From the NCBI GenBank assembly GCA_017991415.1, contig JAGOQR010000003.1, positions 44,279 through 108,278 on the forward strand: DNA of 64,000 nt. Direction: 5' to 3'. A program made the translations under genes and the position numbers. The stretch's first letter is position 1. Every line of letters begins with the position of its first letter. Below are positions 2,873-63,830 of the stretch, piece by piece. The DNA is from Candidatus Magasanikiibacteriota bacterium (GTDB lineage: Bacteria > Patescibacteriota > Patescibacteriia > Magasanikbacterales > GWA2-37-8). The notes under the pieces are model-generated. The model was given only the letters and a program-made list of their open reading frames with translations, had not been told where the DNA came from and searched no databases.

Positions 2873-5800
2873 TTATTTATCACTATTTTTTCCAGCAGCT
2901 GCTTCTGCTCTTTCTCCACTCTCCGACCTTGCGTCTATTTCTTGTTGTTTTTTAACTTCTTCTACCAATCTATACTCACCTGATTCTGATTTTTTGAGCA
3001 ATTCTACGTCTAAGCCCAAACCTTTAAGCTCTCGCACCAAAACATTGAAAGATTCTGGCAAGTTTACTTTACTAATTGGTTCACCTTTAATAATAGCTTC
3101 GTAAGCTTTGGAACGTCCTGGGACGTCATCGGATTTGATAGTTAATATTTCTTGCAAAGTATGGGCAGCACCATATGCTTCAAGTGCCCAAACTTCCATT
3201 TCACCGAATCTCTGTCCACCGAATTGAGCTTTACCACCAAGCGGCTGCTGGGTAATTAAACTGTATGGACCAGTAGATCTTTGGTGAATTTTATCCTCAA
3301 CCATGTGGTTAAGTTTTAACATGTAGTTATAACCAACAGTTACTTTGTGATCATAAGGCTCACCAGTTCGGCCATCAAATAAAGTAACTTGGCCACTTTC
3401 TGGCAGGCCAGCCTTCTTTAATTCTTCTTTAATTTGAGCTTCATTAATACCATTAAGTACTGGAGTTGCTACTTTATAACCCAACGCATTTGCAGCCAAA
3501 CCTAAGTGAGTTTCTAAGAGCTGACCTAAGTTCATACGAGAGATAACACCGAGTGGAGATAAAATAATATCAACCGGTGTACCATCTTCTAAGAAAGGCA
3601 TATCTTCAGCAGGAACAACTTTGGAAATAACACCTTTGTTTCCGTGACGACCAGCCATTTTATCACCAACCTGAACTTTTCTCATGTCAGCTACTCTTAC
3701 TTGCACCTGCTTGATAACACCAGGCTGCAACTTGTCACCATTTTCAGTAGAAAATACTTTGATACCAGTTACTCTTCCGTGCTCACCGTGTTCGAGATAT
3801 AAAGATGAGTCGCGAACGTCGCGAGCTTTTTCACCAAAGATGGCGCGAAGCAATCGTTCTTCGGCTGATAATTCAGTTTCACCTTTAGGAGTGATTTTAC
3901 CAACAAGAATATCTCCAGATTTTGCCTCTGCGCCAATACGGACAATACCTTCGCTATCCAAATTCTTTAATTTTTCTTCACTGACATTTGGAATATCAGC
4001 GGTAATAATTTCTGGACCTAACTTTGTTTCACGAACATCGATTGTATAATCTTCAATATGAATGGAAGTGAAATTATCTTTTTGTACTACACGCTCAGAA
4101 ACAATGATCGCATCTTCATAGTTATAACCATCCCATACCATATAGGCTACCAACATGTTTTGACCAAGTGACAGTTCACCATCTTTGATTCCAGGACCAT
4201 CAGTCAAACCTTGACCTTTTTTAACTTTTTCTCCCAATTTCACAATTGGAGTTTGATTAACACAGGTAGAGTGATTGGAACGAACAAACTTACTTAAGTA
4301 ATATGTATGTTTAACATCTTTTTTATCAGTTACCACAATATGATTACCGTCTACTTCGGTAACTTCACCATCAACTTCGGATAAAATTACATAACCAGAG
4401 TAATAGGCGGCGCTTGCTTCTGTACCAGTACCAACGAGCGGCTGTTGCGGACGAATACATGGCACAGCCTGCCTTTGCATGTTTGTACCCATGAGTGCGC
4501 GAGTCGCATCATCGTGTTCTAGGAACGGAATACAGGAAGTGGCGATACTAATAATTTGGTTGGAAGCCACATCAATATAATCAAGGTCGCTTGTTCTACC
4601 AACACCAGGGTTTCCGTGAATACGAGTTGGCACATTTTCTTCTAAGAAGTAACCATTCTCGTCTACTTTGGTAGTTGCTGCAGCTGTATTTACTCTTTCT
4701 TCTCTAAACGCATTGAGGTATACAATCTCATTAGTAACGCGAGCACGCACAGAAATATTTTTATTTTTTTCTTTAGCCAATTTTACAGCTATTTCTTTGG
4801 TGATTTTTGTACCAGCTTTTACGCCAGCCACTTCGTCTAATAAAATTTCACCTTCGGTAAACTTTGGATCATTAGGAACCTCTCGTAAAACTTTTCTATA
4901 TGGAGTTTCGATAAAACCAAATTCGTTTACGCGCGCAAAACTGGAAAGGTGGTTTACCAAACCGATATTTGGTCCTTCTGGAGTGGCAATCGGACAAATA
5001 CGACCGTAGTGAGTCGTATGTACGTCACGAACTTCAAAGCCTGCACGATCACGAGACAAACCTCCTGGACCCAAGGCACTTACACGGCGTTTGTGCTCAA
5101 GCTCGGACAACGGATTGGTTTGATCCATGAACTGTGATAACTGAGAACTCATGAAGAATTCACGAATAGCAGAGATTACTGGTCGAGCATTAATGAGTTT
5201 GTTTGGAGAGAGTGCTTCCATTTCTTGAGTACTCATTCTGTCTTTAACAATACGTTCCATACGAGCCAACCCTACGCGAAATCTGTTTTGTGCAAGCTCA
5301 CCTACAGCTCTAATACGACGATTACCAAGATGGTCAATATCATCTGGTTCTTCTTGGGTAACATTTAAACGTACAACTTCTTTAAGAACTGCTAATAATT
5401 TTTCTGGAGACAAAACTCGATTATCTTTTTTGTCATAATCTTCATTTTTGTATCCTAAATCAAATTTTGTATTGAATTTATAAACACCAACACGACCCAA
5501 ATCGTAACGGTCAAAGTTAAAAAACATGGCATAAATAAGACTCTTGGCATTGTCGGCAGTAGCCAAATCTCCAGGACGGATTCTTTTGTATACTTCAATA
5601 AGTCCTTCATCTTGATTTTTTGCAATATCTTTTTTAATGGTCGCATCGATATAATCGATACTTGGATGATTATTTACACCTTTAAATAAATCCAAGATTT
5701 TATCGTCTTCTTGAAAACCAAAGGCACGCAAGAGTGATGTAGCTGCCATCTTACGTTTACGATCTACCTTAATCCAGATAACATTATTCATGTCTGTTTC

Positions 5801-6316
5801 AATTTCGATCCAAGCACCGCGATTTGGGATAATTTTAGCACCATAGTATCTGCGGCCACGAATATTTTCTGCAGTAAAAAAAGCACCAGCACTACGAATA
5901 AGCTGGGAAACAACTACACGTTCGATACCATTAACAATAAAGGTACCACGGTGAGTCATCAGAGGAATATCGCCCAAATAAATTTCTTGTGATTTAGTTT
6001 GGTTTGTGCGTTTGTTGAGCAATCTAGCAGTAACGCGAAGCGGTGCTTCGAAAGTTAAATTTCTCTCGCGACAAACTACCTCGTCAAATTTAGGCTCATC
6101 TAAATAATAATTTTCTAGGTAAAGCTCCAGATCACGACCAGTAAAATCGGTCATTGGAGATACTTCTTCGAAAAGATCCTTAATACCAAATTTTAAAAAC
6201 CAATCATACGAACTTTTTTGCACATCAATAAGATCTGGCACTGGCATAGCATCGCGCACATTGGTAAAAAATTTGCGTTCAGCCGTCTTCAGTGCTTGGC
6301 GTTTAAATATGGGCAT
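2873..6316 (-). CDS. rpoB: DNA-directed RNA polymerase subunit beta
   Basis: 1147 aa ORF with rpoB hallmark segments ([27 protein letters not shown]; rifampicin-cluster region [30 protein letters not shown]). Canonical rpoB-rpoC order. Confidence 0.95.
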
Positions 6317-7310
6317 AGGAGTTAATTAAAACTTATTATTTTAAATTAATTTATAAAAAATTTTATATTCCCTGTCATCCTGATAAATCAAATCGCCTGA
6401 TTACAAACAAAAAATGGCGCCTTGAGGGCGTTAACTCTATTTTTTCTTAAAGCTTAGCTAATAAAAGCAAGGCGAGCATGTAAATTTATTTATTCCTTGC
6501 ACGACTTTGCAACCTTTTTGATACTAAGGCTGCTAAATTTGCGCTAATTTAAGGCAAAAACTTTTTCTCTCTCGTTGCAGAAGTTAAAAGTAACTAAATA
6601 TTACGCTAATTTTAAAGTATTGTCAAGGAAAAATTAAAAATGCTTGCTTGTCAAGATATTTCATAATTTTAGCTAAAATTAGCTAAATTAAAGAATTAAA
6701 GCTGAAACTTAAACAAAATTTTCTTCTTTTATCCACAGTTTATACCTAGAAATACCTCTTTTTACCGATTAAGCTAGAAAACCATCCCAAAATCATAGCC
6801 CGGCACCCCCCCCTACTCTCCGAAACAACCGAAGCTGCCCAGAATAGGCATGCTTACAAAATTTTTAATATTGGAGCCTGCTTAGTTTAATAATTTTTTA
6901 TTTGAAAAAGCCTAAAAAAATAATAGGTAAAATAGCTGGGCATTAAACTTGACAAATTATTTTTTAACTATAAAATATAAGCATAATTTTATTTAAAAAT
7001 TTTTCTTCACCAAGTTGCGCAAGAGTTGATGTCTCAACCGAATCGGATTTTTTAAACAAATCTCTCTCTTTTCTCTTGAACATTTTTTTGTTCAAAGAAA
7101 GTTTTCAAAATTAGATTCGCTAGTTAAAACATGCAACTCTTGTCGCAGCTTAATGCAGAAAAGTTCTTAGAGCCACCTTTAAACTTTAACAGATAAAGGT
7201 GGCTTTTTGTTTACGCATCTAATTTGTGATACAATATGGATGCGAAATATTGAAATACACCAGAAGCTCGCCTGACAGAATTCTATTCGATCAATTTCGA
7301 TACATTAAAT

Positions 7311-30488: not shown

Positions 30489-30518
30489 AAAAACCTGGGC
30501 TAGCCCAGGTTTTTTGAT
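30489..30518. terminator. Bidirectional terminator ending the copper operon
   Basis: Hairpin cctgggc-tagc-ccagg flanked by A6 and T7. Confidence 0.65.
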
Positions 30519-30535
30519 TGAGAAAATAAAGGTAC

Positions 30536-30907
30536 TTATTTTACTTTGGGAACAAATTTTAAAGAAATAGAATTTACACAATGGCGAGTATTTTTATCAG
30601 TATATTGCTCGCCAACAAAAACATGACCTAAATGACCACCACATGCGGCACAGGTAATTTCGGTACGCATACCATCGGCATCTACCGTCTTTTTTACTGC
30701 ACCCGAAATCTCTTGATCAAAACTAGGCCACCCACAACCTGAGTGAAATTTACTATCCGAAGTATATAAGGGCGTTTCACATCTTCGGCACACGTATGTT
30801 CCTTCTACAAAAAAATCATCGTATTCTCCTGTAAAGGGCCTTTCAGTACCTTTATCCACAATAACTCGTTCTTCTTCTAGAGAGAGGGTATTATTTTTCA
30901 TATACAC
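30536..30907 (-). CDS. msrB: Peptide-methionine (R)-S-oxide reductase
   Basis: 123 aa with HSGCGWPSF and a CxxC...CxxC zinc motif. Confidence 0.85.
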
Positions 30908-30917
30908 TTATTAAATA

Positions 30918-31499
30918 TTAACCTGTTTTTAAGCTGTATTTTTTCAATGCTCTCCTAATTTTTTTATGATCTGGAATCGTTCGAGCAACTAAACTCCAAA
31001 ATTTATCCGAATGGTTAAATTGACCTAAATGGCTCAGCTCGTGGACTATAATATAGTCCACCATCTGCTCAGGCAGCAGTGCGATTTTATAATTAAAATT
31101 TATATTGCCTTGCTTAGAACAACTCCCCCAACGAGTGCTTTGATTTTTGATAGAAATTTTATTCCAATTATAGTTATAGAACTGATTAAAATAAAGCATC
31201 TTATCTCTAGCAATTTTCTTGGCTACTGCCTTATACCGTATATAATCTAGCTTGGAGCTTTTTACCTTTAACGGTTTTTGAACAGAAGACATCTGGCTAA
31301 TTTTTTTTAAAACCCAATCAGACTTATCAATAATAAAACGCTCAATGGCGGGTAAGCTCAAGAACCGAGGGGCTGTCACAGTTACGCTGCCCCCTGGGTA
31401 AACAGCCAGCCTGAGATGCCGAGACGCATTACTCACCTTAAGTGTATACTCTATATTTTTTGCTGCCAACTCAATAGTTTTTAACATACCCAAAAGCAC
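30918..31499 (-). CDS. YgjP/DUF45 (M48/SprT-like) metal-dependent hydrolase
   Basis: 193 aa with HEXXH as IVHELSHL. Confidence 0.6.
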   Translation of the reverse strand: MLLGMLKTIELAAKNIEYTLKVSNASRHLRLAVYPGGSVTVTAPRFLSLPAIERFIIDKSDWVLKKISQMSSVQKPLKVKSSKLDYIRYKAVAKKIARDKMLYFNQFYNYNWNKISIKNQSTRWGSCSKQGNINFNYKIALLPEQMVDYIIVHELSHLGQFNHSDKFWSLVARTIPDHKKIRRALKKYSLKTG

Positions 31500-31502
31500 A
31501 TC

Positions 31503-31784
31503 TTAAAATGGCAGCTGGCCCACTTCGGCGGCCTCTGATTCCTCTTCTTCATCAACATCTTCTTCAGCACCTGCTTCAATATCTTTTTTAATTTCTTCAA
31601 ATTCATTCTCTATCTCTGCTAAACGACTATTACTTTCTTTTATGAGAGTCGCTGCTTCTTTTACTTTTTTTAGGCCTTCTTCTACGTCTACTTCATCTTG
31701 ATTATCAAACCAAGCAGCAATAGCCGAAAGTGACGCCAAATTTTTACTTAAGTTTATATCTTTTGTTTTTTCTTTTTTAGACAT
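31503..31784 (-). CDS. xseB: Exodeoxyribonuclease VII small subunit
   Basis: 93 aa, helical and acidic, immediately downstream of xseA. Confidence 0.6.
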   Translation of the reverse strand: MSKKEKTKDINLSKNLASLSAIAAWFDNQDEVDVEEGLKKVKEAATLIKESNSRLAEIENEFEEIKKDIEAGAEEDVDEEEESEAAEVGQLPF

Positions 31785-31788
31785 ATAT

Positions 31789-33042
31789 TTATTTTTTATT
31801 AATATTTTTTATAACTGATTCAATTTCACCGTCTACTACACGTATATTTAGTTGCTCACCAGGCAATACGTCCTTAACACTTCGCACTACCCTATCTTTT
31901 ACAAAGACTAGGCTATAGCCTAACCGTAGTTGCCGCTCTGGATTATTTGCTTCTACCAAACGAACCAAATTAGCTATCTTATTACTAGCGGCCTTAAGCG
32001 CAGTTCCGTATAGCTGGTTAATTTCTTGTGGCATAGTATATATATATCGAGCTCGAACCATGCTTAGAGCACTAACAAATGATTTTATAATTAAGTTTTG
32101 ATTATTAATAATATGATGTTCCAGTCCCGTTATAGCCACCTGTATTTTAGCAAGACTATTTTTTACAATATCTTTTACATCTTTATACGTCGCCAAAACC
32201 ATATGCAAAGCTTGTACCACTCTTCTTGCGTCCTTCTCAAGTGCATAGGTTGCTTCAAGCCACGACTTTGAGAGCAGCGCTGCAACCAGTGACGGCGTAG
32301 ACTCAGTAGCATCAGCAACAAGTGTTGCGAGCGGCACATCCTGATGATGGCCAATACCAGTTACCACTGGCACAGGAAACGCAGCGATTTCTCGCACCAA
32401 CTTTTCGTTATCAAAACCAGCCAGCGACTGCATAGATCCACCGCCCCGAATGAGCACAAGCACATCCAAATCTTCATCGCGCATAGCCCGCACACTAAGC
32501 GCCAACGCCCGCCCACATTCAGGACCTTCCACGCGACAATCTAAAATTTTAATTTTAAAACCCGATCGGCGTAAATTGTTACTAAAATCATGAATTACTG
32601 CTCCATGCACTGACGTAATAACCCCTATCTTTTGAGGAAACAACGGTAGAGGTCTCTTACGAGACAAGTCAAACAAACCTTCTTCTGCCAATTTTTTCTT
32701 TAACTTCTCATACGCTTTTTTAAGTGCGCCCTCACCTACCACCTCCATAGCATCTGCAACAAAAGACATTCTGCTAAAACGTCCACTAAAACTAGGAGCG
32801 CCTTTTAACTGCACTTCCATACCAACTTCCAAATCAACACCACTATACATGTACTTTCCCTTCCACATGATACAAGGCAGAACATCGCCTGTATCTTTAT
32901 CTTTAAGAGAAAAATAAACATGCCCGCTCGCTGGCACTTTCACCTCAGAAACTTCACCAATAATCTGGACTTGCAGTGTACCCAATGTTGAATTTATTAT
33001 TTCTATAAATTCAGAAATTTTATACGGTTCATTTTGATGCAT
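31789..33042 (-). CDS. xseA: Exodeoxyribonuclease VII large subunit
   Basis: 417 aa with an N-terminal OB-fold (GEVSEVKVPASGHVYFSLKD) and the catalytic region GRGGGS. Confidence 0.8.
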   Translation of the reverse strand: MHQNEPYKISEFIEIINSTLGTLQVQIIGEVSEVKVPASGHVYFSLKDKDTGDVLPCIMWKGKYMYSGVDLEVGMEVQLKGAPSFSGRFSRMSFVADAMEVVGEGALKKAYEKLKKKLAEEGLFDLSRKRPLPLFPQKIGVITSVHGAVIHDFSNNLRRSGFKIKILDCRVEGPECGRALALSVRAMRDEDLDVLVLIRGGGSMQSLAGFDNEKLVREIAAFPVPVVTGIGHHQDVPLATLVADATESTPSLVAALLSKSWLEATYALEKDARRVVQALHMVLATYKDVKDIVKNSLAKIQVAITGLEHHIINNQNLIIKSFVSALSMVRARYIYTMPQEINQLYGTALKAASNKIANLVRLVEANNPERQLRLGYSLVFVKDRVVRSVKDVLPGEQLNIRVVDGEIESVIKNINKK

Positions 33043-33069
33043 AAACTATAATTACAGCAACAGGTAATT

Positions 33070-33528
33070 TTATTTGTTCTTATAGCGGCCAGGCCAACAT
33101 TTGGGGCAGCTTGGATGGGTACTATCCTTATAAAATATATGACCACGGCTACAAATCTTTTGTGCAGCCTTTTGAAGTTCTTTAGCTTTAAACAAAACAA
33201 TTTTTTTCACCAATGTGTACGGAATCGACTTATCTAACAAAAACTGAATCGCTCCTTTTGAAACCTTAAATCCTACTAGCTCTTTTTCAAAAGCAGCGTT
33301 TGCAGAAGGTGTTGCATAAAAACCAATATGTTTTTCCCAGGCCGCAAAATAGACTAAGGGCTTACCATACAATTTAAAGGCTGGCATACCATAACTTATC
33401 GATCCTACTGCCTTTGGAGCAAACGCCTCTACAATTTGTCTTATTTTTTTCAAAATAATCCGAGTACCTTTTGGAGCATTTTGAATATACTCACCTATGG
33501 TATTAATTGTTTTTTTATTTTTTAACAT
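33070..33528 (-). CDS. DUF1801/YdhG-like protein
   Basis: 152 aa with a DUF1801-like core (YGMPAFKLYGKPLVYFAAWEKHIGFY) plus a C-terminal Cys/His zinc-ribbon-like tail. Confidence 0.45.
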   Translation of the reverse strand: MLKNKKTINTIGEYIQNAPKGTRIILKKIRQIVEAFAPKAVGSISYGMPAFKLYGKPLVYFAAWEKHIGFYATPSANAAFEKELVGFKVSKGAIQFLLDKSIPYTLVKKIVLFKAKELQKAAQKICSRGHIFYKDSTHPSCPKCWPGRYKNK

Positions 33529-33577
33529 ATATCAGGTTATTATGGAACGGTTTTTCAACGTAGAATAATTATTCTAG

Positions 33578-33650
33578 CAAATACTTAAAATGAGCGCCCA
33601 TTAATTACAATTAGTGTAAGGGTTTCTGGAACTTCTGTCTAGACATAAAT
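33578..33650 (+). repeat. Direct repeat copy A flanking the GC-rich cassette
   Basis: aaaatgagcgcccattaattacaattagtgtaagggtttctggaacttctgtctagac aligns at about 80% identity with copy B at 34845-34936 (ttacaatcagtgtaaggatttctggggattctgtacagac). Confidence 0.6.
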
Positions 33651-33731
33651 TTAGGATACTTGGATCAGGTTTGAAATTTAAAATAAAAAAAACGAAACAG
33701 TAAAACAGGTGTTTGGAAAGCAATTCTTCCA

Positions 33732-33760
33732 TTGACAAAACACTATTTTTATGCTAATAT
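33732..33760 (+). promoter_or_regulatory. Near-consensus sigma70 promoter driving the GC-rich lipoprotein gene
   Basis: TTGACA (33732-33737), a 17-nt spacer, then TAATAT (33755-33760), all in AT-rich DNA. A leader of about 100 nt contains the SD AAAGGA. Confidence 0.6.
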
Positions 33761-33863
33761 AATGTGTTCTTTTTCAACACTTGATACCCTTATCGACCCC
33801 AACTTTACCGAGGCTAATGCTATCGGTGGGTCTGAGGGGTTTCAAGCCACGAAAGGAATCGAC

Positions 33864-34640
33864 ATGACCCGCATCTCGATCATTCTCGCCGCTGCCTTCG
33901 CCGTCGCCGCCTGCACCGAGACCGAGGTGGTCGTCAACGACCACTACGGCGTCTGCACGGCCGACGAGCAGTGCCCGGGCACCTACGTGTGCCAGGACGG
34001 CATCTGCATCGAGCCGGAGGAGCCGCCACAGTCGGTCGCGGACTGTGCGACCTACGAGTGGGCCGGTCGGGAGACGCCCTGGCACTGCTGGTGCGAGGGC
34101 GACAACTGCATCGGCACCGATGCCGAGCTCCCCTGGGAGTGCCCGCTCGACTTGCTGGACTCCGATCCCAACGACGGCGTCTGCGGTGTGCAGTGCCACG
34201 ACCACTTCTGGCTCGACGCCCAAGCGGTCGGTCTCGACCCCAACACCTCGCCCCCGTCCCTGACCTTCGACGTCGGTAACGGTGTGGTGACATGCACCCA
34301 GTACGTCGACATCTCGCCCTTGCGCTTCGTGCGCAGCCAGACCGAGATCTACCTGGATGCGCCCGACGGCCGTACCGTCCAGATCGACTATCGGATGACG
34401 GCCCCGGCCATCGTCGAGGTGTTCATCCGGTACAACGAGGGTGCCCAGTGGATCAACGGCGGACTTGCCTTCACCTACACCTTCCCGGGCGGCCCCACCA
34501 ACATCGGTGGCGTGCGGTACGGGTTCCGGCCGGAAGAGTCATTCCCTTCGGGGACCACCACCTACTGGAAGCTCGAGGCTCATCGGTGGATCAACAACGA
34601 GCTGTTCGACACCTGGACGGGGAGCATCACGCTCCCCTGA
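33864..34640 (+). CDS. Cysteine-rich secreted lipoprotein of unknown function, encoded in a compositionally foreign (about 65% GC) segment
   Basis: ATG at 33864 preceded by AAAGGA. Lipoprotein signal MTRISIILAAAFAVAAC. At least 12 Cys in the N-terminal half (CTADEQCPGTYVCQDGICIEPEE; WHCWCEGDNCIG). Codons are strongly GC3-biased, unlike all neighbouring genes. The opposite-strand and other-frame ORFs listed in the track here are high-GC artefacts. Confidence 0.7.
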   Translation: MTRISIILAAAFAVAACTETEVVVNDHYGVCTADEQCPGTYVCQDGICIEPEEPPQSVADCATYEWAGRETPWHCWCEGDNCIGTDAELPWECPLDLLDSDPNDGVCGVQCHDHFWLDAQAVGLDPNTSPPSLTFDVGNGVVTCTQYVDISPLRFVRSQTEIYLDAPDGRTVQIDYRMTAPAIVEVFIRYNEGAQWINGGLAFTYTFPGGPTNIGGVRYGFRPEESFPSGTTTYWKLEAHRWINNELFDTWTGSITLP

Positions 34641-34646
34641 ACACTG

Positions 34647-34744
34647 CCTCTGGCTGCGCTCTCACGAGAGAGCGCAGCCCCATCCGAGTTGTTTGCACAA
34701 CAGAATAATTAATTTGTTATGTTGTGCAAACTCGGATGCAGAGG
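34647..34744 (+). repeat. Composite inverted-repeat structure at the 3' end of the GC-rich gene
   Basis: An outer pair cctctg...cagagg encloses a GC hairpin (ggctgcgctctc-acgag-agagcgcagcc, 34652-34679) and a 19-22 bp AT-richer imperfect IR (catccgagttgtttgcacaaca ... tgttgtgcaaactcggatg, 34681-34738). Confidence 0.6.
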
Positions 34745-34757
34745 AAGTATAAATTTA

Positions 34758-34792
34758 AAAAGCCCTTCTTATTCAGAAGGGCTTTTTAGTTA
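34758..34792. terminator. Bidirectional rho-independent terminator
   Basis: aaaaagcccttc-ttattca-gaagggcttttt. Confidence 0.65.
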
Positions 34793-34844
34793 AAAAACTA
34801 AACAATAAAAATTAAACCTTACGAAACATGTCAACTAAAATCTA

Positions 34845-34936
34845 GGATTTAAAAGATGACGCACTGCGGGCCACTCGGGTTAAGTACCCGTTAGTTACAA
34901 TCAGTGTAAGGATTTCTGGGGATTCTGTACAGACTT
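34845..34936 (+). repeat. Direct repeat copy B flanking the GC-rich cassette
   Basis: Matches copy A, with an internal GC-rich insertion of about 23 bp. Lies between the cassette terminator and a hypothetical gene next to tRNA-Ser. Confidence 0.6.
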
Positions 34937-35034
34937 AGAGTCGAGGCACGTGGGTCTAGCCTGGATTTTAACAGGTCATCTAATAAAGAACGCCTAATAT
35001 TGAGAGCATGTGATAGTATCCGAATTGGAACAAT

Positions 35035-35475
35035 TTAACTGTTGACAATTGCAGAATCCGGTAATGATGGAAAATCTTTTAATTTTATTGTTACCTCTTT
35101 ATCAAGAAAAGCGCGGGTAAGGCGATGCATGCCATTAAATATTTGTCCATCCACAGTTCTCCATATGGGATTGGATAAATCTGCATGCTGGATTGTTGCT
35201 ACGTGATCGGCGTAGGCTTGATTTTGTTTTGCTGCGTCCCAATCTTTAAGAAGATCGTATGGGCCTAATAAATCCCCGTTTCTATCAGTCCAATAATAAT
35301 TCCCTTCAGATACTGCTTCAGCTAATTCATTCAATGGCACTTCTCGCGTAGGAAGCAGTTCAGCGACGCGCTCTAAAAGTTCAACATTATAAAGCTGGTC
35401 TCCAACAGTGGTTGTTTCAAAGTTATGACCATGCAATCCATCTTGATATCCAGCTGGCGGTTTTCCTTCTAGCAT
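35035..35475 (-). CDS. Hypothetical protein (147 aa) adjacent to tRNA-Ser
   Basis: The ORF-track version (35035-35586) runs through the tRNA-Ser gene. The start is placed at the internal Met (MLEGKPPAGYQDG...). No recognisable motif. Confidence 0.4.
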   Translation of the reverse strand: MLEGKPPAGYQDGLHGHNFETTTVGDQLYNVELLERVAELLPTREVPLNELAEAVSEGNYYWTDRNGDLLGPYDLLKDWDAAKQNQAYADHVATIQHADLSNPIWRTVDGQIFNGMHRLTRAFLDKEVTIKLKDFPSLPDSAIVNS

Positions 35476-35499
35476 AATTATTTGATTTTTTAAAAAATG

Positions 35500-35584
35500 C
35501 GGAGAGGGTGGGATTCGAACCCACGAGGCCTTGCAGCCTACCGCTTTTCGAGAGCGGCACTTTCGACCACTCAGACACCTCTCC
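35500..35584 (-). tRNA. tRNA-Ser (anticodon CGA), type II tRNA with a long variable arm
   Basis: Reverse complement is GGAGAGGTGTCTGAGTGGTCGAAAGTGCCGCTCTCGAAAAGCGGTAGGCTGCAAGGCCTCGTGGGTTCGAATCCCACCCTCTCCG. Anticodon loop CTCGAAA. Long variable arm. Confidence 0.85.
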
Positions 35585-35625
35585 ATTTTAAATTGCTCTT
35601 ATCCTAACACGAATTAGCTGGACCT

Positions 35626-36249
35626 TCAACGATTATCCAAACTAGCCCATAAATATAGCGAAGCGGTCGTGCGATACGGTTGCCAACGAGAAGATAGTTG
35701 TTTTAATTTTTTAGGAGATGGATCCTTACGTAAACCATACAATTTCTTAACTGCATTTCGCAAACCCAAATCACCAAAAGAAAATACATCTGGCCTACCA
35801 AGCGAAAAAATCAAAAACATTTCTGCCGTCCATCGCCCGATTCCTTTTACTTTTACAAGCATCTCAATTATTTCTTCGTCTGTTTTTTTATTTACCTGCC
35901 TAAAATCCAATGCGCCCTCCTCAAACGCAGTGGCAAGATTTTTAATATATGAAGCCTTAGAACCAGACACTCCTACCGATCGAAGCTCCTCATTACTTTT
36001 TGCCAAAACCTGAGCAGGCAAAGGAAATTTACCCTGAGGGAACAAAGCTTTGAATCGTTTTATAATTGTACTAGCTGCCTTGCCTGAGAGCTGTTGGCTT
36101 ATAATAGCGTCGGCCAAAGATTCAAAATAGTTTTTGCTCGAACGCAAAATTGTTGGCTTAGCCAACAAAAATAGTGTGGCAAGTAGCGGATCTGCTTTTT
36201 TTAAAAAAACCATAGCTGGCGACATAGATACTTTTTTCTGTACTGACAT
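35626..36249 (-). CDS. DNA-3-methyladenine glycosylase II-like (HhH-GPD superfamily, AlkA-type)
   Basis: 207 aa with an HhH-GPD motif region (VKVKGIGRWTAEMFLIFSLGRPDVFSFGDLGL). Confidence 0.7.
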   Translation of the reverse strand: MSVQKKVSMSPAMVFLKKADPLLATLFLLAKPTILRSSKNYFESLADAIISQQLSGKAASTIIKRFKALFPQGKFPLPAQVLAKSNEELRSVGVSGSKASYIKNLATAFEEGALDFRQVNKKTDEEIIEMLVKVKGIGRWTAEMFLIFSLGRPDVFSFGDLGLRNAVKKLYGLRKDPSPKKLKQLSSRWQPYRTTASLYLWASLDNR

Positions 36250-36250
36250 A

Positions 36251-37801
36251 TTACAATTCTATACACGGTTTTACTTTATTATTAAACCCTTCAAGCTGCG
36301 CAATTTGATCTACGGTAATATTTTGCAATTTTTTATCTCGCTTATTCTCTGGGTACATTACTTCATAAAAAAGCGGCATCATACTATCTACTCCGTTTTG
36401 CAAAGACATACCCTTGGCTGACTCTACGATTTTGTTCCAGGTGCTATTTGTACCATAGAGCATAAGATCTAAGCCCGTAGCTTGGAATAAGCTACCATTT
36501 TTATCTTGCAAAAACGCAAGCGCGATATCCCCGCCCATAATCTTGGTTTCTATTTGTTTACACATACCTGCTTCCTCGCTTTCTCCTATCTCCTGGAGCA
36601 ACTGCAGATACCCTGCTTTCATAGCAGTTAAGTAACTTGGCTGAGAAAAACCACCTAGACAAGTTACGCCGTAATAAAACGAAATAAGTATAAAGGTAAG
36701 GAGCATAGAGGGGACGAGCTCTCCTGACTGTAATTTTTCACTAATAACCAAAGCTGTTAAGGGCACACAGAAAGTACCGTCCGCATTTATTAGCCCTCCA
36801 TTTTTTTTCCATAATCGCTGCCTATACTTTTCTCCTTTGGGTTTTGCCCAAAACAAAAAAGTTCCAATATCATTTTTTGAAAAAGCGCCAATAATGCCTT
36901 CAAAATATTTTATCAGTAGCTGCTGATATTTGGCATTAAAAATAATTTGATTAACGATTGTATTCTGATTGAGGTGATACTTGATAAGTAAATTACTTGT
37001 AATTGTTTCCTGATCAATGTAGACAAGATTTGGTAATTTTTTGTACGGGGCAAACAACTGTTGCCAAAACCTGAAGTTAGTCTTGGTAATTTGTTCAGAA
37101 TAATTCTTGCTCTCTAACACATCAGACTGACCATAAACTACATCAATTAATCTTGTAATTTTTTCTACTGTCTCATGACGAATGAGACCGTCTAACACTT
37201 TGTGCTTTAGCATTTTTTTAATACGGGTTAAATCTTTTTGCGTATAACCCTCAAGTCCATAGACAGCCCGCTGACTATCTTTGGCTGGGAAAAAAGACAA
37301 ACGATGCAGCTCTTGAGTGTTCCCTATATCACTATGAAAAATGAGTCCACGTGGAAAAGAAGAATTGTTAAGCGAGACATTAGCGCAGGACAAAACAATA
37401 ATATTTTCTAAATTAAAATCTGCTTGGGGTGTGGCAGTAATTAAATTAGCATTTAAAAAAAATGGATGACAAATTGGCCCATGATGATCGACAGTGGAAA
37501 CAAAATAATTTTGCTCTAACTGCCTTTCGACACTGTGCGCAACCTCAACACCAAGCAGCCGCTCTACCTGCTCCACAACAACAGCAACAAATTCTGCCTG
37601 ACGATCTTTTGCAGCAGGGCTCTTCTCAATTTCTTTATACCGCAAGGCATGGTCATACAATGTTTCATTGCCTTTCTTTTCAAGAGTTTCTTGAAGGGCA
37701 GGGGCGGTACGAAGCACTTGGTTTTTAAGTTGCGCAAAATCTAACCCAAGCTGGCTTGAATCAATAAAATTTCTTTCTCGGGCTATATTCATAGAAGACA
37801 A
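36251..37801 (-). CDS. Hypothetical protein (516 aa), likely co-transcribed with the upstream ATP-grasp gene
   Basis: Long ORF without recognisable motifs (no P-loop, no Mur-ligase GxxGKT). Ends 2 bp before alkA-like and starts 16 bp after the ATP-grasp gene. Confidence 0.4.
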   Translation of the reverse strand: MSSMNIARERNFIDSSQLGLDFAQLKNQVLRTAPALQETLEKKGNETLYDHALRYKEIEKSPAAKDRQAEFVAVVVEQVERLLGVEVAHSVERQLEQNYFVSTVDHHGPICHPFFLNANLITATPQADFNLENIIVLSCANVSLNNSSFPRGLIFHSDIGNTQELHRLSFFPAKDSQRAVYGLEGYTQKDLTRIKKMLKHKVLDGLIRHETVEKITRLIDVVYGQSDVLESKNYSEQITKTNFRFWQQLFAPYKKLPNLVYIDQETITSNLLIKYHLNQNTIVNQIIFNAKYQQLLIKYFEGIIGAFSKNDIGTFLFWAKPKGEKYRQRLWKKNGGLINADGTFCVPLTALVISEKLQSGELVPSMLLTFILISFYYGVTCLGGFSQPSYLTAMKAGYLQLLQEIGESEEAGMCKQIETKIMGGDIALAFLQDKNGSLFQATGLDLMLYGTNSTWNKIVESAKGMSLQNGVDSMMPLFYEVMYPENKRDKKLQNITVDQIAQLEGFNNKVKPCIEL

Positions 37802-37816
37802 AACTTGGTCGACTTA

Positions 37817-39007
37817 TTAAAACGCATCAATATACTGCTCTACATAATCCCACAAAGGTTGGGCCACATTATTTGTCGCCCCTTCAACAGGATCATAGTG
37901 CAAATTAATAAACGGTAAACCATTACACTCTATAATGCCCCATTTTTGCTCATCTGGATTACGAGAAATATCGTTAATAATAAAATCAAAACCAATTACA
38001 GGGTCGGCAACTACTTCCGCTGCTTTTTCTAAAATTTTTATAGTTTCTGGATGGGTAATACTCGTTACTTCCGCTGCACAGCCCCCATAGGAAACGCCGA
38101 TTTTTTCTAGCAGATCAATAGTCTGATTGTTCGGCAGAACGCTCTCCAAGTTTAATCCAAGTCTAGCTAGAAAATTTTTATGCTCTTCTGTGACCACTAC
38201 ATCTTTAACACCTGTTGGCTTGTTGGAATTTTTTATTTCAATTAAACGAGCAACGGAACTATTACCATCACCTGTAATTCGTGGCGGATCCCCGCGTAAT
38301 ACACCCGCTACTTTTCCGTTTATGACGGTACCGCGATAGACACTACCCACCAAATGTTCTTCTAAAATTACCCAGTAGCAGAGCTGTTTGGCTGACTCAA
38401 ATGCTTTTTTTAAATCTTCTTCAGTATATATGTGCGTGGTAGTATGTCGCCCTCGTGAACCAAGACGCGGCTTTATAATGACTGGCTTTTCTAATTCTTT
38501 AAACTTGTTGAGCAGTGGTGAAAAACGAGAAAATACTCCGCCTCGAGCTACAGGCAAACCCTCATCTTGTAAAGTTTTTTTAAAAAGCGCCTTATCATCC
38601 AACCACCATTCGGAGTTTTTTGGGGTACGAAGCGGCCTTGGCAACCCGTTAAAATAAATCTTTTTACCATGTACAGTCGCCCCATACAAGTCGACTACTT
38701 TTCCAAATGCATAGAAATTATGCATAGGTATACCACGACGCAGAGCCTCTTGCCAGAGCACCTTGCCGCGCTGATTTACTGTTTTGCTTGGATCATTATT
38801 AACCTTAAGCACACCCACGGCGCTATACAACCACACAAAAAATTTAAGTAGCGGATTGGTAATAGCCGCTGCCAATCGAGATAAAAAACTTTTTGACAAC
38901 CAAACATGCATTGGCGAACTAAAAACCGAGCTCGTCTGACTAAACCACGAAAGAGCGTGTGATACTTGATTATTGCCACAGGCTAAACAGCGTTGTTTTT
39001 CAGACAT
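37817..39007 (-). CDS. ATP-grasp ligase resembling the N-terminal ATP-grasp half of cyanophycin synthetase (CphA), without a Mur-ligase domain
   Basis: 396 aa. Segments VIIKPRLGSRGRHTT, VINGKVAGVLRGDPPRITGDGNSSVARLIEIKN and GVSYGGCAAEVTSITHPETIKILEKAAEVVADPVIGFDFIINDISRNPDEQKWGIIECNGLPF are collinear with CphA ATP-grasp regions (VVKP..G..G.GV, VVNGKLVAAA.R.P..V.GDG..TI.ELI and NLSTGG.A.DVTD..HP.N...A..AA.AIGLDIAGID...DIS.P). Confidence 0.55.
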   Translation of the reverse strand: MSEKQRCLACGNNQVSHALSWFSQTSSVFSSPMHVWLSKSFLSRLAAAITNPLLKFFVWLYSAVGVLKVNNDPSKTVNQRGKVLWQEALRRGIPMHNFYAFGKVVDLYGATVHGKKIYFNGLPRPLRTPKNSEWWLDDKALFKKTLQDEGLPVARGGVFSRFSPLLNKFKELEKPVIIKPRLGSRGRHTTTHIYTEEDLKKAFESAKQLCYWVILEEHLVGSVYRGTVINGKVAGVLRGDPPRITGDGNSSVARLIEIKNSNKPTGVKDVVVTEEHKNFLARLGLNLESVLPNNQTIDLLEKIGVSYGGCAAEVTSITHPETIKILEKAAEVVADPVIGFDFIINDISRNPDEQKWGIIECNGLPFINLHYDPVEGATNNVAQPLWDYVEQYIDAF

Positions 39008-39040
39008 ACTAGAGAGTTAATAACCTTCATATAATATACG

Positions 39041-39077
39041 AAAATGAGCCTGTTGCAAACAGGCTCATTTCTTTTTT
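39041..39077. terminator. Hairpin terminator between VIT1 and the ATP-grasp gene
   Basis: aatgagcctgtt-gcaa-acaggctcatt followed by tcttttttg. Confidence 0.5.
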
Positions 39078-39090
39078 GCAGGTTAGCCTT

Positions 39091-39879
39091 TTAGGCCAAG
39101 CCACCAAGCAGTATCCCAACACCATAAGCAGAAGCTGCTGCAAAACCACCAAGCAACAACATCTCGAGACCAGCTTGATACCAAGGCTGACGAGTAAAGT
39201 AAATTTTAAGAGTACCAAGGATAAATAACGTAATACCCGTTAGAACGCAGGCCATCACAAAAGTATGAGCAGCAAAAAAAGGAACAAAGCGAGCTGCTAC
39301 ATAAATTAAAACGGGGATGGATCCAAAAAAAATGAAAGAACCAAATGTAACAGCTGCATTTTTTATTGGAGACTCCTTACTTTCCACCATACCCAACTCT
39401 TCTACCATCATAATATCTACCCACGATTTTTCATATTTCGACAAAGCTTGAACCGCGATTTTTGCATCTTCTTCGGCAATACCTTTTTCCATATACAGCT
39501 CCACCATTTCTTGCTTTTCACCTTCTGGGTAATTACGAACTTCCCATGTCTCTCGCACTCGTTCAGCAGCCATATAATCATTTTCTGCTTTGGTACTTAA
39601 ATAATCACCAAAGGCCATCGATATGCCATCGGCAATCAAATTGGCTACACCCAAAATTAAAACGACCGTAGAAGTTAAGCTTGCTCCAGCTACTCCAGCC
39701 ACCACGGCAAATGTAGTTATAATTCCATCCAAGCCGCCATAAACAAAGCTTTTAATATATTGCCCTCCTCCAGAAAAATGATTCTCAGGCGCTCGGCCAC
39801 CTTGATGAGCTTTTTTACTCGCCTCAGCATCATTATTACGAAAAGCATCTCGTGCCTGATCCAAATTTCGAGTAATCAT
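39091..39879 (-). CDS. VIT1/CCC1 family iron/manganese transporter
   Basis: 262 aa with a VIT1 signature region (GGLDGIITTFAVVAGVAGASL...LGVANLIADGISMAFGDYLS) and a C-terminal TM bundle. Confidence 0.75.
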   Translation of the reverse strand: MITRNLDQARDAFRNNDAEASKKAHQGGRAPENHFSGGGQYIKSFVYGGLDGIITTFAVVAGVAGASLTSTVVLILGVANLIADGISMAFGDYLSTKAENDYMAAERVRETWEVRNYPEGEKQEMVELYMEKGIAEEDAKIAVQALSKYEKSWVDIMMVEELGMVESKESPIKNAAVTFGSFIFFGSIPVLIYVAARFVPFFAAHTFVMACVLTGITLFILGTLKIYFTRQPWYQAGLEMLLLGGFAAASAYGVGILLGGLA

Positions 39880-39904
39880 ACATCATTTTTTATAAAATAA
39901 TTTA

Positions 39905-40513
39905 TCATTTACCATTTTCTGCCATTAAAAATTTATATGATTGAAAACCTAGCACTGCTCCAATAACTGGGGCCAGAACATAGACAACTGTTACAGAATT
40001 GAGTGCAAGAGCGACTGCTGGGTTGAGAATTCCAGCTGCACCACACACAGACGCTACTAGCACACCAAGGAGAAGCGACCCACCCACAACCAGTCCAGAC
40101 ATTTGCTCTTTGGCTTTTCCGTAAACCACTGCAGCAATTCCAAAATTAAAGAAAAAAGCTCCTAGCATTTCTGCTAAAAACACCTTGCCATTAAACACTG
40201 CTCCGACCGCCGGACTTACCACAACAAAAACTTTGGCTAACATAATTGCCATCAAAGTACCTGCAAGCTGCGCAAGAATATAAAATACTGCCTCTTTGGT
40301 AGATATTTTTTTCACTGACAATTGCGCCAACGTAACAGCAGGGTTAATATGGCACCCTGAAATTGGTCCTATAGAATAAACAAATAGCGTCAGTGTAAGG
40401 CCTGCAATAAGCGGAACCGCCATAGGTAAGCTACCTGTAAAAGATACTGCCATTAGAACAACAAAGACTAAGGCAAACGTACCGATAAATTCTGCCAAGT
40501 ATTTTTTATACAT
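39905..40513 (-). CDS. Aquaporin/MIP family channel
   Basis: 202 aa with two NPA boxes (HINPAVTL; ILNPAVAL). Confidence 0.85.
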   Translation of the reverse strand: MYKKYLAEFIGTFALVFVVLMAVSFTGSLPMAVPLIAGLTLTLFVYSIGPISGCHINPAVTLAQLSVKKISTKEAVFYILAQLAGTLMAIMLAKVFVVVSPAVGAVFNGKVFLAEMLGAFFFNFGIAAVVYGKAKEQMSGLVVGGSLLLGVLVASVCGAAGILNPAVALALNSVTVVYVLAPVIGAVLGFQSYKFLMAENGK

Positions 40514-62934: not shown

Positions 62935-63168
62935 AAATTAAAGTTTAACGTAACTTAATTTATCAAATATAGAGTATGGGATGTCAAAAATATTTAACAT
63001 AAATTTAAAATTTGTATCAAAAATTAAATAACACCTAGCAACTTACCTGTCCGCTTTGAAAAAACCAAAGTAAACTTGAGGAATTATATCACTTTTCAAA
63101 CACGAATTGTCAAGGATCTTGGTGTAACTAAAAACACTCCACTTTCATGGAATGTTTTTAAAAATTTT

Positions 63169-63230
63169 CTGAGATCTCCGTAATTCTATATACAAGTATT
63201 TATATAGAGAATTACGGCGGAGATCTCAGG
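63169..63230. repeat. 62-bp imperfect inverted repeat abutting the second GC-rich segment
   Basis: ctgagatctccgtaattctatata ... tatatagagaattacggcggagatctcagg. The right arm carries two 2-nt insertions. Composition switches to GC-rich immediately after the IR. Confidence 0.6.
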
Positions 63231-63293
63231 CATCCTCCACCGCACTGTTGGGGTTGGAGGTTGATGCGTTGTTGGGCGCGGGCCGACGCGGCG

Positions 63294-63692: not shown

Positions 63693-63830
63693 GACAGTCT
63701 CCTACGTGGGGGTTTTGGAAATTGAACCTTTGTACAAGCCAGCAGGCTTTACCAAGGTAAAAGAAAGCCTAGTTTTGGATCTCTTTTCCCCTGGCAAAGC
63801 CTGGTTTGTTATTTAAAAGAGCAACAGACA

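Follow-up and report, generated by a model that had tools for sequence, protein, structure and literature searches.

How a strongly GC-rich gene comes to lie, and to persist, in an AT-rich genome is the question raised by a 64-kb stretch of DNA (hereafter the window) on a Candidatus Magasanikbacteria contig of 38% GC. An earlier note on this DNA had described a discrete cassette of deviant composition encoding a cysteine-rich lipoprotein, and had explained it by recent transfer from a high-GC donor under a native AT-rich promoter, not yet ameliorated. The description holds, the segment at 33786-34680 being 62-71% GC: sliding windows of 200 nt range from 0.62 to 0.71 in GC between ~33800 and 34700, compared with 0.27-0.45 in the surroundings. 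Composition changes sharply at both ends, and the island is the stronger of just two in the 64 kb. The lipoprotein gene has GC1/2/3 values of 0.59/0.49/0.90, against a GC3 of 0.28-0.34 in seven neighbouring genes; the cassette has a GC content of 0.66 and a GC3 of 0.90, versus ~0.38 and ~0.30 in its neighbours. An assembly chimera, in which reads of a high-GC organism were joined to a CPR contig, would account for the abrupt switch at either end but can be set aside with near certainty, because three independent per-run Logan assemblies from separate SRR runs (L026, L027 and L028, spanning window positions 30490-35517, 31082-35517 and 31082-33958) are 100% identical to the window and agree across the AT/GC junctions, both of which are covered by L026 and L027, and because homologous cassettes in more than 10 other assemblies have matching junction positions. 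The same AT/GC mosaic was found in separate samples (L001, L003-L006, L007-L010, L015, L021 and L022).

The island contains an ORF of 258 aa on the forward strand (33864-34640, GC3 0.90) with a single lysine; its assignment as a lipoprotein stands, its earlier length of 259 aa does not. By inspection, the signal peptide MTRISIILAAAFAVAAC ends in a lipobox, VAAC (residues 14-17, Cys17), which fits the bacterial lipoprotein pattern [LVI][ASTVI][GAS]C and whose cysteine is kept in at least 90% of homologues. The mature protein continues with a Cys-rich N-terminal module, in keeping with the very cysteine-rich N-terminal half noticed before (13 Cys in the protein), a disulfide-rich middle domain with a QCHDHFWL motif and a C-terminal beta-sandwich of FN3-like fold. 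No family in the Pfam, NCBIfam or PHROG profiles matched the lipoprotein above cut-off, and sub-threshold matches to EB and DUF7107 were confined to the first Cys module. The product is probably a disulfide-stabilised surface lipoprotein for binding or adhesion, and appears to evolve fast. It was rejected as the target of a diversity-generating retroelement, no template repeat (a second copy of any segment of the CDS) being present in the 64-kb window.

Long spurious ORFs do arise in several frames of GC-rich DNA, and the whole transcript folds far better than shuffled sequences (z = -7.7), as would be expected if the segment were a large structured non-coding RNA with an ORF as a mere by-product of GC-richness. 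However, homologues at 41-88% identity all keep the same reading frame, the signal peptide with its lipobox and the framework of 13 Cys, dN/dS is below 1, GC is piled up at codon position 3 (0.90) compared with position 2 (0.49), there is no Rfam match, and the CDS has no RNA structure beyond that given by its codon usage (z = -1.7 to +0.1 against synonymous-codon shuffles), which makes a non-coding RNA very improbable. Selection for mRNA secondary structure inside the CDS was likewise rejected as not significant against these shuffles.

Around the gene lies a unit with the order element E, near-consensus sigma-70 promoter, pyrimidine leader, 66-nt 5'UTR hairpin, GC3 = 0.9 gene, 3' hairpin and terminator, all on the forward strand. 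The promoter (33732-33760) consists, as had been noted, of TTGACA (33732-33737), a 17-nt spacer and TAATAT (33755-33760), with an extended TG. It is followed by a conserved, pyrimidine-rich and anti-SD-like leader motif, GTTCTTTTTCAA (33766-33777), and by an extended hairpin of 66 nt with an invariant block, GCTATCGGTGGGTCTGAGGGGT (33780-33846; folding z = -5.0), at which the GC-rich segment starts. Downstream of the gene, the nested inverted repeats and canonical terminator previously remarked upon were both recovered. The structured 3'UTR (34646-34745; MFE -83 kcal/mol, z = -12.4) has an outer stem, 34646-34652 with 34739-34745, around a GC-rich hairpin H1 (34652-34679) and a 57-nt hairpin H2 (34681-34738), and the bidirectional intrinsic terminator (34756-34793) has a hairpin with a 14-bp stem (34756-34788) and a T run. 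In H2, 8 of the 26 pairs show compensatory changes across 5 genomes; for the 5'UTR hairpin the figure is just 2 of 23 pairs in 8 sequences. Folding also predicts pairing of the leader motif with the Shine-Dalgarno region (33851-33859), with a summed pair probability of at least 6 in 10/15 cassettes; the prediction is thermodynamic, and a tendency to pair with a Shine-Dalgarno sequence is to be expected of any U-rich motif. On these foldings, a 5'-terminal UUCUUUU motif that encloses the long hairpin by pairing with the Shine-Dalgarno region could act as a gate on translation and guard the 5' end, and the 3' hairpins would shield the 3' end. A uORF within the 5'UTR hairpin (ATG at 33830) was rejected, the codon being ACG or GCG in L003, L009 and L015. 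Among the Rfam 15 covariance models solely tRNAs reached the gathering threshold, and a search of 33400-35100 up to E 10 gave nothing credible for element E, the 5'UTR or the 3'UTR; a known RNA family for the repeats or UTRs was therefore rejected. The conserved leader and the 5' and 3' hairpins are candidates for new cis-regulatory RNA elements, and could serve as signatures to find more such genes.

The regulatory parts are inherited with the gene. A TTGACA-17-TAnAAT promoter, a GTTCTTTT(A)CAA leader and the 5'UTR hairpin accompany it in L003, L006, L009, L010, L015 and L021, whose genomic contexts differ from one another, and in ~187 kb of related sequence scanned, the promoter and leader signature was found solely upstream of GC-rich cassette ORFs. 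In L003, positions 724-1947 match L021 at 88.4%, in an unrelated genomic context, and the homology ends outside the unit, which runs from the E core to the terminator. Because they move with the gene into unrelated contexts, the promoter, leader, 5'UTR hairpin and 3' hairpin are, on sequence comparison, parts of the cassette and not native DNA, contrary to what had been supposed for the promoter. Further copies of the cassette lie next to corA and next to a tRNA-Asn gene, tandem cassettes occur in L007 and L009, and ~20 loci are known, many of them on short contigs. The second GC island of the window is also a cassette of the same design, on the reverse strand (63171-63859), with a promoter at 63831-63859, a leader GTTGCTCTTTTAAA, a long 5'UTR hairpin, a CDS for a secreted ORFan (63294-63692, GC3 0.89) and an AT-rich 3' hairpin of 57 nt (63171-63227). 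The feature is probably an autonomous expression cassette of ~1.2 kb (33597-34793) with a recurring mosaic family. It also seems probable that this family of GC-rich cassettes for secreted proteins is small and, within the sampling so far, restricted to Magasanikbacteria-like CPR bacteria. No match to the lipoprotein family was found in the metagenome contigs scanned, and a full-text search of the literature returned no account of GC-rich cassettes in Magasanikbacteria or Patescibacteria.

The composition and relatives of the gene bear on its origin. Codon third positions (C3 0.58, G3 0.32) are typical of high-GC bacteria, as recent transfer from a high-GC donor would predict. Repeated modules with 47-51% identity to the N-terminal Cys module occur in P0014 and P0015, representative matches that share this module only and apparently come from GC-rich organisms; the tail of P0014 resembles what we take to be a MYXO-CTERM tag, and this too would suit a donor of that kind, as would the ORFan status of the second cassette's protein. 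However, no full-length relative in a GC-rich genome was found among 5.8 billion proteins or 1.84 billion representatives. All of the 11 relatives in the former set whose context was readable lie in AT-rich CPR-like contigs, as do all the full-length or central-domain relatives with readable contexts in the latter, and every homologue examined is a GC island in an AT-rich CPR contig. Co-inheritance of the promoter, leader and UTRs in differing contexts also speaks against a foreign gene placed under a native promoter.

The alleles provide a further comparison. Their GC3 ranges from 0.68 to 0.93, with some C-terminal halves lower, and it declines from 5′ to 3′ in 11/12 family-related genes (the exception being L015), a pattern that partial amelioration of a transferred gene would give. 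The spread of 0.68-0.93 also fits ongoing amelioration of imported DNA. However, the window and L021 alleles are as synonymously diverged as flanking housekeeping genes (pS 0.42 in the lipoprotein gene, F, and 0.46 in xseA) and both have a GC3 of 0.90, where neutral decay would, by our estimate, have led to ~0.6. Moreover, fourfold sites between members with a GC3 of ~0.9 are near random expectation, and one third-position spectrum is common to four unrelated cargos. At the protein level the same pair differs more strongly (pN 0.30 in F versus 0.05 in xseA), dN/dS of the alleles is high, and the alleles are mosaic, with incongruent segment-wise identities. Polarised substitutions between L021 and L003 number 17 S-to-W versus 1 W-to-S, but this count is biased and cannot decide between maintenance and decay, because the sole outgroups are saturated and GC-rich; contigs encoding identical proteins have no synonymous polymorphism. 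With near-saturated synonymous divergence at a GC3 kept at ~0.9, and relatives in AT-rich CPR-like contigs, a recent foreign gene is not borne out and recent transfer from a high-GC donor is improbable. We infer instead that the cassette lineage has long been GC-rich and has stayed so inside AT-rich genomes, its composition not being the mark of a recent import.

A second question is how the cassette reached its locus. It had been placed two genes from tRNA-Ser(CGA); the proximity is correct (the tRNA gene lies at 35499-35584 on the reverse strand) but only one ORF intervenes, an AT-rich reverse-strand ORF of 146 aa (35035-35475, GC3 0.28) that is related to phage protein family phrog_17560 (E = 3.7e-8). 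Comparison of the window with L021, L022 and L024 bears out a tRNA-anchored variable region. In all four, xseA and DUF1801 lie on one side and tRNA-Ser and HhH-GPD on the other, and the interval from tRNA-Ser to DUF1801 is hypervariable. L021 has element E and an F allele followed by an 18-nt fragment of the tRNA-Ser 3′ end, L022 has E and a different GC-rich lipoprotein of 280 aa with a homologous 3'UTR, and L024 has neither cassette nor E. The 3′ end of the tRNA gene forms the right-hand boundary of this islet: the window and L022 are 98.5% identical to the right of it, from exactly 35499, and 87% identical to the left of the islet. In the window the 146-aa ORF fills the islet from the second copy of E to the tRNA. 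No integrase, recombinase or transposase was found in the gene tables for ~10 kb either side in colinear relatives, and a 17-mer taken from the 3′ end of the tRNA is present in the window only within the two tRNA-Ser genes, with no distal repeat.

The cassette had been reported to lie between imperfect direct repeats, attributed to site-specific insertion or repeat-mediated capture. The repeats exist, but at shifted positions: not 33578-33650 and 34845-34936 but, best placed, 33597-33681 and 34887-34971 (85 nt, 71% identity ungapped), with a gapped alignment reaching 33585-33690 and 34862-34985 (62% identity over 106 aligned positions). They are no general intergenic motif, as their 18-nt core occurs at just these two places in the 64-kb window, versus 0.06 expected. 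Copy 1 (33597-33681), a degenerate one, contains the palindromes TTACAattagTGTAA (33605-33619) and TTCTGTCTAGA; copy 2 (34862-34985) is fuller and includes a 5′ part, GGGCCACTCGGGTTAAGTACCCGTTAG. Copies of this element, E, also sit upstream of the cassette promoter in L003, L021 and L022, each with a single E and none downstream, and E is missing from the cassette-free locus L024. Copy 2 is nearer to the copy in L003 (77%; 84% identical to L003 693-803) than to its partner (62%). The attribution to insertion thus fails: comparison of the copies indicates that the repeats are one cassette-linked element present twice, with copy 1 as a standard component of the cassette, and not insertion duplications. 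The pair may be what is left of the boundary with an adjacent or tandem cassette, or may have come from recombination of E by E. Scans of metagenome contigs for E, and of viral contigs for E and the 5'UTR block, gave no match. As a structured RNA E was rejected, since the closing stem predicted for copy 2 (z = -2.4) is not kept in L003.

Integration at an att-like E, whereby a circular molecule of E plus cassette entered a resident E through a recombinase acting in trans and so yielded direct repeats, would account for E on both sides of the cassette and for a core found nowhere else in the 64 kb, but identity between the copies is just 62% (gapped) to 71% (ungapped), the copy of L003 is nearer to copy 2 than copy 1 is, and L003, L021 and L022 have no downstream copy. 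The two short palindromes in E are typical of protein-binding sites, although E matches no known RNA family. tRNA genes are a recurrent neighbour: the islet begins exactly at the tRNA-Ser 3′ end, the tRNA-Ser fragment lies just past the cassette in L021, and in L009 two cassettes, each preceded by a 26-nt repeat, lie between 66-nt direct repeats (91% identity) adjoining the 3′ end of tRNA-Asn, the right copy overlapping the tRNA by 5 nt. However, the window lacks a tRNA-derived repeat, and the colinear relatives lack an integrase or recombinase within ~10 kb. Such integration is unlikely, if somewhat less so than recent transfer from a high-GC donor.

We can only infer how the cassette moves, because the gene tables of the colinear relatives list neither a recombinase nor a transposase nor an integrase beside it. 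Recombination would pass whole cassettes, or segments of them, from one genome to another within the islet anchored at tRNA-Ser; it would probably be homologous, follow DNA uptake and use E, the promoter/leader and the 3'UTR as conserved anchors. The mosaic of flank identities (98.5% versus 87%) and the mosaic alleles are both compatible with homologous recombination. Candidate causes of a GC3 of ~0.9 are biased gene conversion, mRNA selection and an unsampled donor. Our preferred cause is GC-biased gene conversion at a recombination hot spot, with mRNA selection as the alternative. We tentatively propose that the GC islands arise, and are upheld, where they now lie. They would belong to a system of cassettes for surface and secreted proteins of hypervariable sequence. 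Conserved AT-rich scaffolds, namely E, the promoter with its anti-SD leader and the 5' and 3' hairpins, would serve there as expression controls and recombination anchors alike, and frequent recombination would drive the divergent coding segment to a GC3 of ~0.9, by GC-biased conversion or mRNA selection.

It is routine to read an island of deviant composition as recent horizontal transfer. In this case a gene of GC3 = 0.9 and the AT-rich elements that control it have apparently come through deep divergence together in GC3 = 0.3 genomes, and we know of no description of a GC3 0.9 island within a GC3 0.3 genome. If the island is made in place, a recombination hot spot would have given it its foreign look as a by-product, and the composition would not be evidence of horizontal origin. 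If the persistence is real, it calls for caution in composition-based calls of horizontal transfer in CPR genomes, and local processes that drive GC may be as strong in bacteria as the gBGC hot spots are in eukaryotes. The predicted products of the cassettes are secreted proteins and fast-evolving, mosaic surface lipoproteins rich in Cys. CPR bacteria are thought to live attached to other cells, and these products are therefore candidate host-contact or adhesion factors.

Several known systems resemble the cassette in part. Like integron cassettes, it is a single-ORF module with a 3′ palindrome of conserved structure and variable sequence, and tandem arrangement is possible (L007, L009). However, each cassette here has its own promoter and terminator, no IntI/attI platform was seen in the gene tables for ~10 kb either side in colinear relatives, and an attC site was rejected, as the R''/R' cores (RYYYAAC/GTTRRRY) are absent at the base of the 3′ hairpin (CATCCGAG/CTCGGATG). 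The islet is like other tRNA-anchored ones in that the variable region begins exactly at a tRNA 3′ end and in the tRNA-3′-end tracts beside cassettes in L021 (18-nt fragment) and L009 (66-nt repeat); it differs in its size of only ~2 kb and in having neither an integrase (colinear relatives) nor a tRNA-derived repeat in the window. In the 5'UTR, the U-rich tract predicted to pair with the Shine-Dalgarno sequence recalls fourU/ROSE-type RNA thermometers and 5′ stabiliser stem-loops, as does the stable hairpin near the 5′ end. Unlike in these elements, the predicted pairing is long-range and closes around a 66-nt hairpin, and there is no sequence or Rfam similarity.

Phage morons are independent transcription units added to phage genomes (PMC3594210). 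The cassette is likewise one gene between its own promoter (33732-33760) and terminator (34756-34788), departs in GC from neighbouring genes, and shares with morons a frequent surface or lipoprotein function and horizontal spread as a unit. In contrast to morons, it lies outside any recognisable prophage, flanked by housekeeping genes and a tRNA with one phage-like ORF of 146 aa, its family has structured UTRs, conserved at both the 5′ and the 3′ end, together with an upstream element, and its GC excess is extreme and common to unrelated cargos. In its composition the cassette resembles gBGC islands and the compositionally deviant 'large GC-rich genes' (lgr) of Protochlamydia (PMC2216083): a local GC3 excess tied to recombination, a gradient from 5′ to 3′, raised dN/dS and loss of lysine. 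However, reported gBGC effects in bacteria are modest and genome-wide (PMC4450053), whereas the excess here is extreme and local. In the minimal mobile elements of Neisseria (PMC3082526), two conserved genes enclose differing whole-gene cassettes, which are swapped by homologous recombination. Close relatives here similarly have differing cassettes, or none, between conserved tRNA-Ser/HhH-GPD and DUF1801/xseA flanks, with a mosaic of flank identity and no dedicated mobility gene. In contrast to the Neisseria elements, the unit is also found at other loci (corA, tRNA-Asn), the composition of its cargo is strongly biased, and the cassettes bring with them conserved regulatory scaffolds that may be internal recombination anchors.

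Both GC scans bore out the GC-rich segment described in the earlier note. In 200-nt windows, GC content was 0.62-0.71 over ~33800-34700 and 0.27-0.44 outside it, and against a background of ~0.38 the sole 1-kb outliers were 34001-35000 (0.565) and 63001-64000 (0.48). The segment carries a lipoprotein ORF (33864-34640, plus strand) of 258 aa rather than the 259 aa first read, whose N-terminus MTRISIILAAAFAVAAC provides a signal peptide and lipobox. GC1/GC2/GC3 of this gene are 0.59/0.49/0.90, compared with a GC3 of 0.28-0.34 in seven adjacent genes. Three 23-nt repeats within the coding sequence (33989-34215, spacing 102 nt) fit three tandem Cys modules of ~34 residues each. A 100% match to KBC69_04130 identifies the window as part of a Candidatus Magasanikbacteria MAG. 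Chimeric assembly could be ruled out, because within 30490-35517 the window agrees at 100% identity with three run-level assemblies made independently (L026-L028), two of which (L026, L027) cross both AT/GC junctions.

The direct repeats reported on either side of the gene are copies of an element, E (33597-33681 and 34887-34971, plus strand; 85 nt, 71% identity), the 18-nt core of which occurs at only these two sites in 64 kb, against 0.06 expected. Of the five known copies of E, window copy 1 and those of the related loci L003, L021 and L022 each precede a cassette promoter by ~90-125 nt. The only downstream copy is window copy 2, with 77% identity to the L003 copy versus 62% to copy 1. Moreover, L003 and L021, whose flanking genes differ, are 88.4% identical over a stretch that begins precisely at the E core and stops at the terminator (L003 724-1947), with no identity beyond it; this shared stretch therefore defines the cassette unit. 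From these alignments we conclude that E is linked to the cassette, rather than being an intergenic motif of general occurrence or a duplication from this insertion. The repeats are real, but their supposed origin by insertion does not hold, since copy 2 is nearer that of L003 and E lies upstream elsewhere.

A sequence match places the promoter TTGACA-17-TAATAT, with a TG extension, at 33732-33760 (plus strand). In front of genes of this lipoprotein family (F), the promoter is kept together with the leader GTTCTTTT(A)CAA right behind the -10 box and a ~66-nt 5′UTR hairpin containing the invariant block GCTATCGGTGGGTCTGAGGGGT. All three are conserved in L003, L006, L009, L010, L015 and L021, and modified in L007. 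The promoter and leader signature was found at two sites only in the window, the F cassette and a second GC island, and in ~187 kb of related sequence 10/10 matches were upstream of GC-rich ORFs. This conservation of promoter, leader and UTRs with the gene, and the restriction of the signature to GC-rich ORFs, argue that the promoter is a cassette part and not, as had been proposed, native DNA. In 10 of 15 cassettes, some of which have unrelated leaders, folding predicts that a 5′-terminal UUCUUUU tract reaches around the long hairpin to pair with the Shine-Dalgarno region. The folding model suggests that this pairing may provide translational gating and 5′-end protection.

Downstream of the gene, hairpins H1 (34652-34679) and H2 (34681-34738) lie one after the other inside the outer stem of a nested fold, which is followed by a 14-bp terminator hairpin (34756-34788; all plus strand). 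The predicted fold of this region (MFE -83 kcal/mol, z = -12.4) agrees with the nested inverted repeats and terminator originally noticed. Compensatory double changes at 8 of 26 H2 pairs (window, L003, L021, L022 and L009) indicate that the H2 structure is conserved. A second 3′UTR type (TTAAATTTCTAAACTTCTTGGAAATTT) stands behind F genes in L006, L007, L008, L010 and L015, and in L007 and L008 also behind an unrelated GC-rich lipoprotein, cargo A. The 3′ hairpins would plausibly protect the 3′ end. No RNA element of the cassette matched any curated family. With its strong signals and its conserved, structured UTRs, the cassette forms a self-contained unit for transcribing a lipobox-protein gene.

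The cassette type is real, non-artefactual and recurrent. The same design is repeated in another GC-rich cassette of the window (63171-63859, minus strand), where a TTGACA..TATAAT promoter and the leader GTTGCTCTTTTAAA precede a long 5′ hairpin, and an AT-rich hairpin of 57 nt lies on the 3′ side; the cargo is a secreted ORFan of 132 aa (GC3 0.89), and the window ends ~140 nt upstream of the promoter. Every homologue with readable DNA context (L001, L003-L006, L007-L009, L010-L014, L015-L018, L019, L021, L022) is a 57-68% GC island in ~36-45% GC CPR-like DNA. The F slot adjoins corA in L007, L008, L010, L011 and L015-L018, and in L009, F and another cassette lie between 66-nt direct repeats abutting tRNA-Asn. 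The L009 repeats (5163-7069) are 91% identical and enclose a small non-secreted ORF (minus strand) and the F lipoprotein (plus strand), both GC-rich cassettes being preceded by the 26-nt repeat GCTCCGTTTRTGCACTGATGTTAGAA; the right-hand 66-nt repeat overlaps the tRNA-Asn 3′ end by 5 nt. Upstream of corA in L007 (3640-6920) and L008 (3450-6950) are three consecutive genes for secreted Cys-rich proteins, namely cargo A, a 349-aa protein and F. Cassettes A and F there have the 3′UTR type TTAAATTTCTAAAnnTTTGGAAATTT in common, and a VirD4/TraG-like ATPase lies just past corA. A serine recombinase is found ~7 kb away in L015. L008 (CAZUFD010000002.1) and L009 (CAZETA010000006.1), titled 'uncultured Gammaproteobacteria', are probably mislabelled bins, because L008 is syntenic with L007, a Magasanikbacteria locus, and both are ~42-44% GC with CPR-like gene content.

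The proximity to tRNA-Ser(CGA) (35499-35584, minus strand) was confirmed, at a distance of one ORF rather than two genes. Close relatives are colinear with the window on both sides, and the interval itself differs. L021 (XseA identity 90%) has E and a divergent F allele; L022 (89%) has E and a different 280-aa GC-rich lipoprotein, G, with a homologous 3′UTR; L024 (77%) has neither cassette nor E. In L021, an 18-nt fragment identical to the tRNA-Ser 3′ end (75-91) lies ~30 nt past the terminator, just before the contig end, and could be an att-like remnant. The alignment of window 35499-40238 with L022 1-4740, which begins precisely at the tRNA-Ser 3′ end, shows 98.5% identity and is perfect for its initial 802 nt, compared with 87% on the left flank (30490-33033); this switch in identity suggests that a recombination breakpoint lies at the islet. 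An AT-rich ORF of 146 aa (35035-35475, minus strand), located between the tRNA and E copy 2, has a match in the phage family phrog_17560 (E = 3.7e-8); its NGMHR motif may be DGxHR/ParB-like. The ORF is probably a relic of phage origin within a tRNA-anchored islet. No recombinase was seen within ~10 kb of the locus in colinear relatives. On comparative grounds, we conclude that a hypervariable islet occupies the interval between tRNA-Ser and DUF1801.

The F protein family is very small, with 11 clusters among 5.8 billion proteins and 7 matches in an exhaustive scan of 1.84 billion representatives, and no family could be assigned in Pfam, NCBIfam or PHROG. Along with a QCHDHFWL motif, homologues keep the lipobox Cys and 12 more Cys. 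The first Cys module resembles the repeated CTxDxQCPGxxxCxxGxC modules of proteins P0014 and P0015, whose sources look as if they were GC-rich organisms. We infer a disulfide-rich surface lipoprotein for binding, under diversifying or relaxed selection. Lysine is nearly absent from cargos F (1/258; window 33864-34640), G (1/280; L022 7286-8128, minus strand) and A (3/252; L007 3787-4545), against 4-16% in proteins of neighbouring genes. The database calls P0009 (L006 1344) and P0004 (L010 860) begin inside the 5′UTR hairpin, giving an N-terminal extension ..LSVGLRGL..; other members lack a conserved ATG in the hairpin, so these starts are probably mis-called.

F alleles are mosaic, the closest relative of the window protein changing by segment: L003 in the N-terminal part (82%, vs 51% for P0002), L010 and P0002 in the middle (87% and 86%, vs 60% for L003), and P0002 and P0003 in the C-terminal domain (78% and 74%, vs 39% for L003). 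When the window is compared with L021 at their shared locus, pS in the cassette gene (0.42) is similar to that of flanking xseA (0.46) and DUF1801 (0.49), and pN is raised six-fold (0.30 vs 0.05). Four-fold sites agree barely above chance between alleles with a GC3 of 0.9. GC3 is 0.90 in both the window and L021 alleles, where neutral decay toward the background of ~0.3 is estimated to give ~0.6 over their divergence. Four unrelated cargos share a third-position spectrum (C 0.46-0.58, G 0.31-0.35, A 0.03-0.09, T 0.07-0.16), and GC3 is 0.95-1.00 in the conserved 5′ part but only 0.52-0.90 in the variable 3′ part of 11 of the 12 family-related genes examined, the exception being L015. Our preferred explanation of the GC-richness is GC-biased conversion in a hot spot of recombination, for which there is bacterial precedent (PMC4450053). 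Such conversion would explain why the spectrum is independent of cargo, why GC3 declines from 5′ to 3′, why the edges are sharp at conserved anchors, why dN/dS is high and why lysine has been lost. Selection on the mRNA is a possible alternative source of the GC-richness; the CDS has no RNA structure in excess of its codon usage. An unsampled GC-rich reservoir is also possible. Simple foreign origin was not borne out, as GC islands recur in AT-rich CPR-like DNA and both alleles retain their GC3. The observation that opened this analysis is confirmed, and its interpretation only partly supported, with native promoter, insertion-generated repeats and simple foreign origin the points in question.

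The cassette behaves as one movable unit whose cargo and segments are swapped, by analogy with MME-like systems presumably through recombination on conserved scaffolds. It is not an integron cassette, having its own promoter and no attC core, with no IntI seen within ~10 kb in colinear relatives; nor is the locus a classical tRNA island, with no integrase in those relatives and no tRNA-derived repeat in the window. The cassette gene was also rejected as a DGR target. Phage morons likewise carry their own promoter and terminator and deviate in GC content (PMC3594210), whereas the cassette is not in a prophage. The tRNA-Ser/DUF1801 locus behaves like a minimal mobile element (MME) of Neisseria (PMC3082526), and the cassette resembles known cassette or moron-like elements but has an unusual compositional regime.
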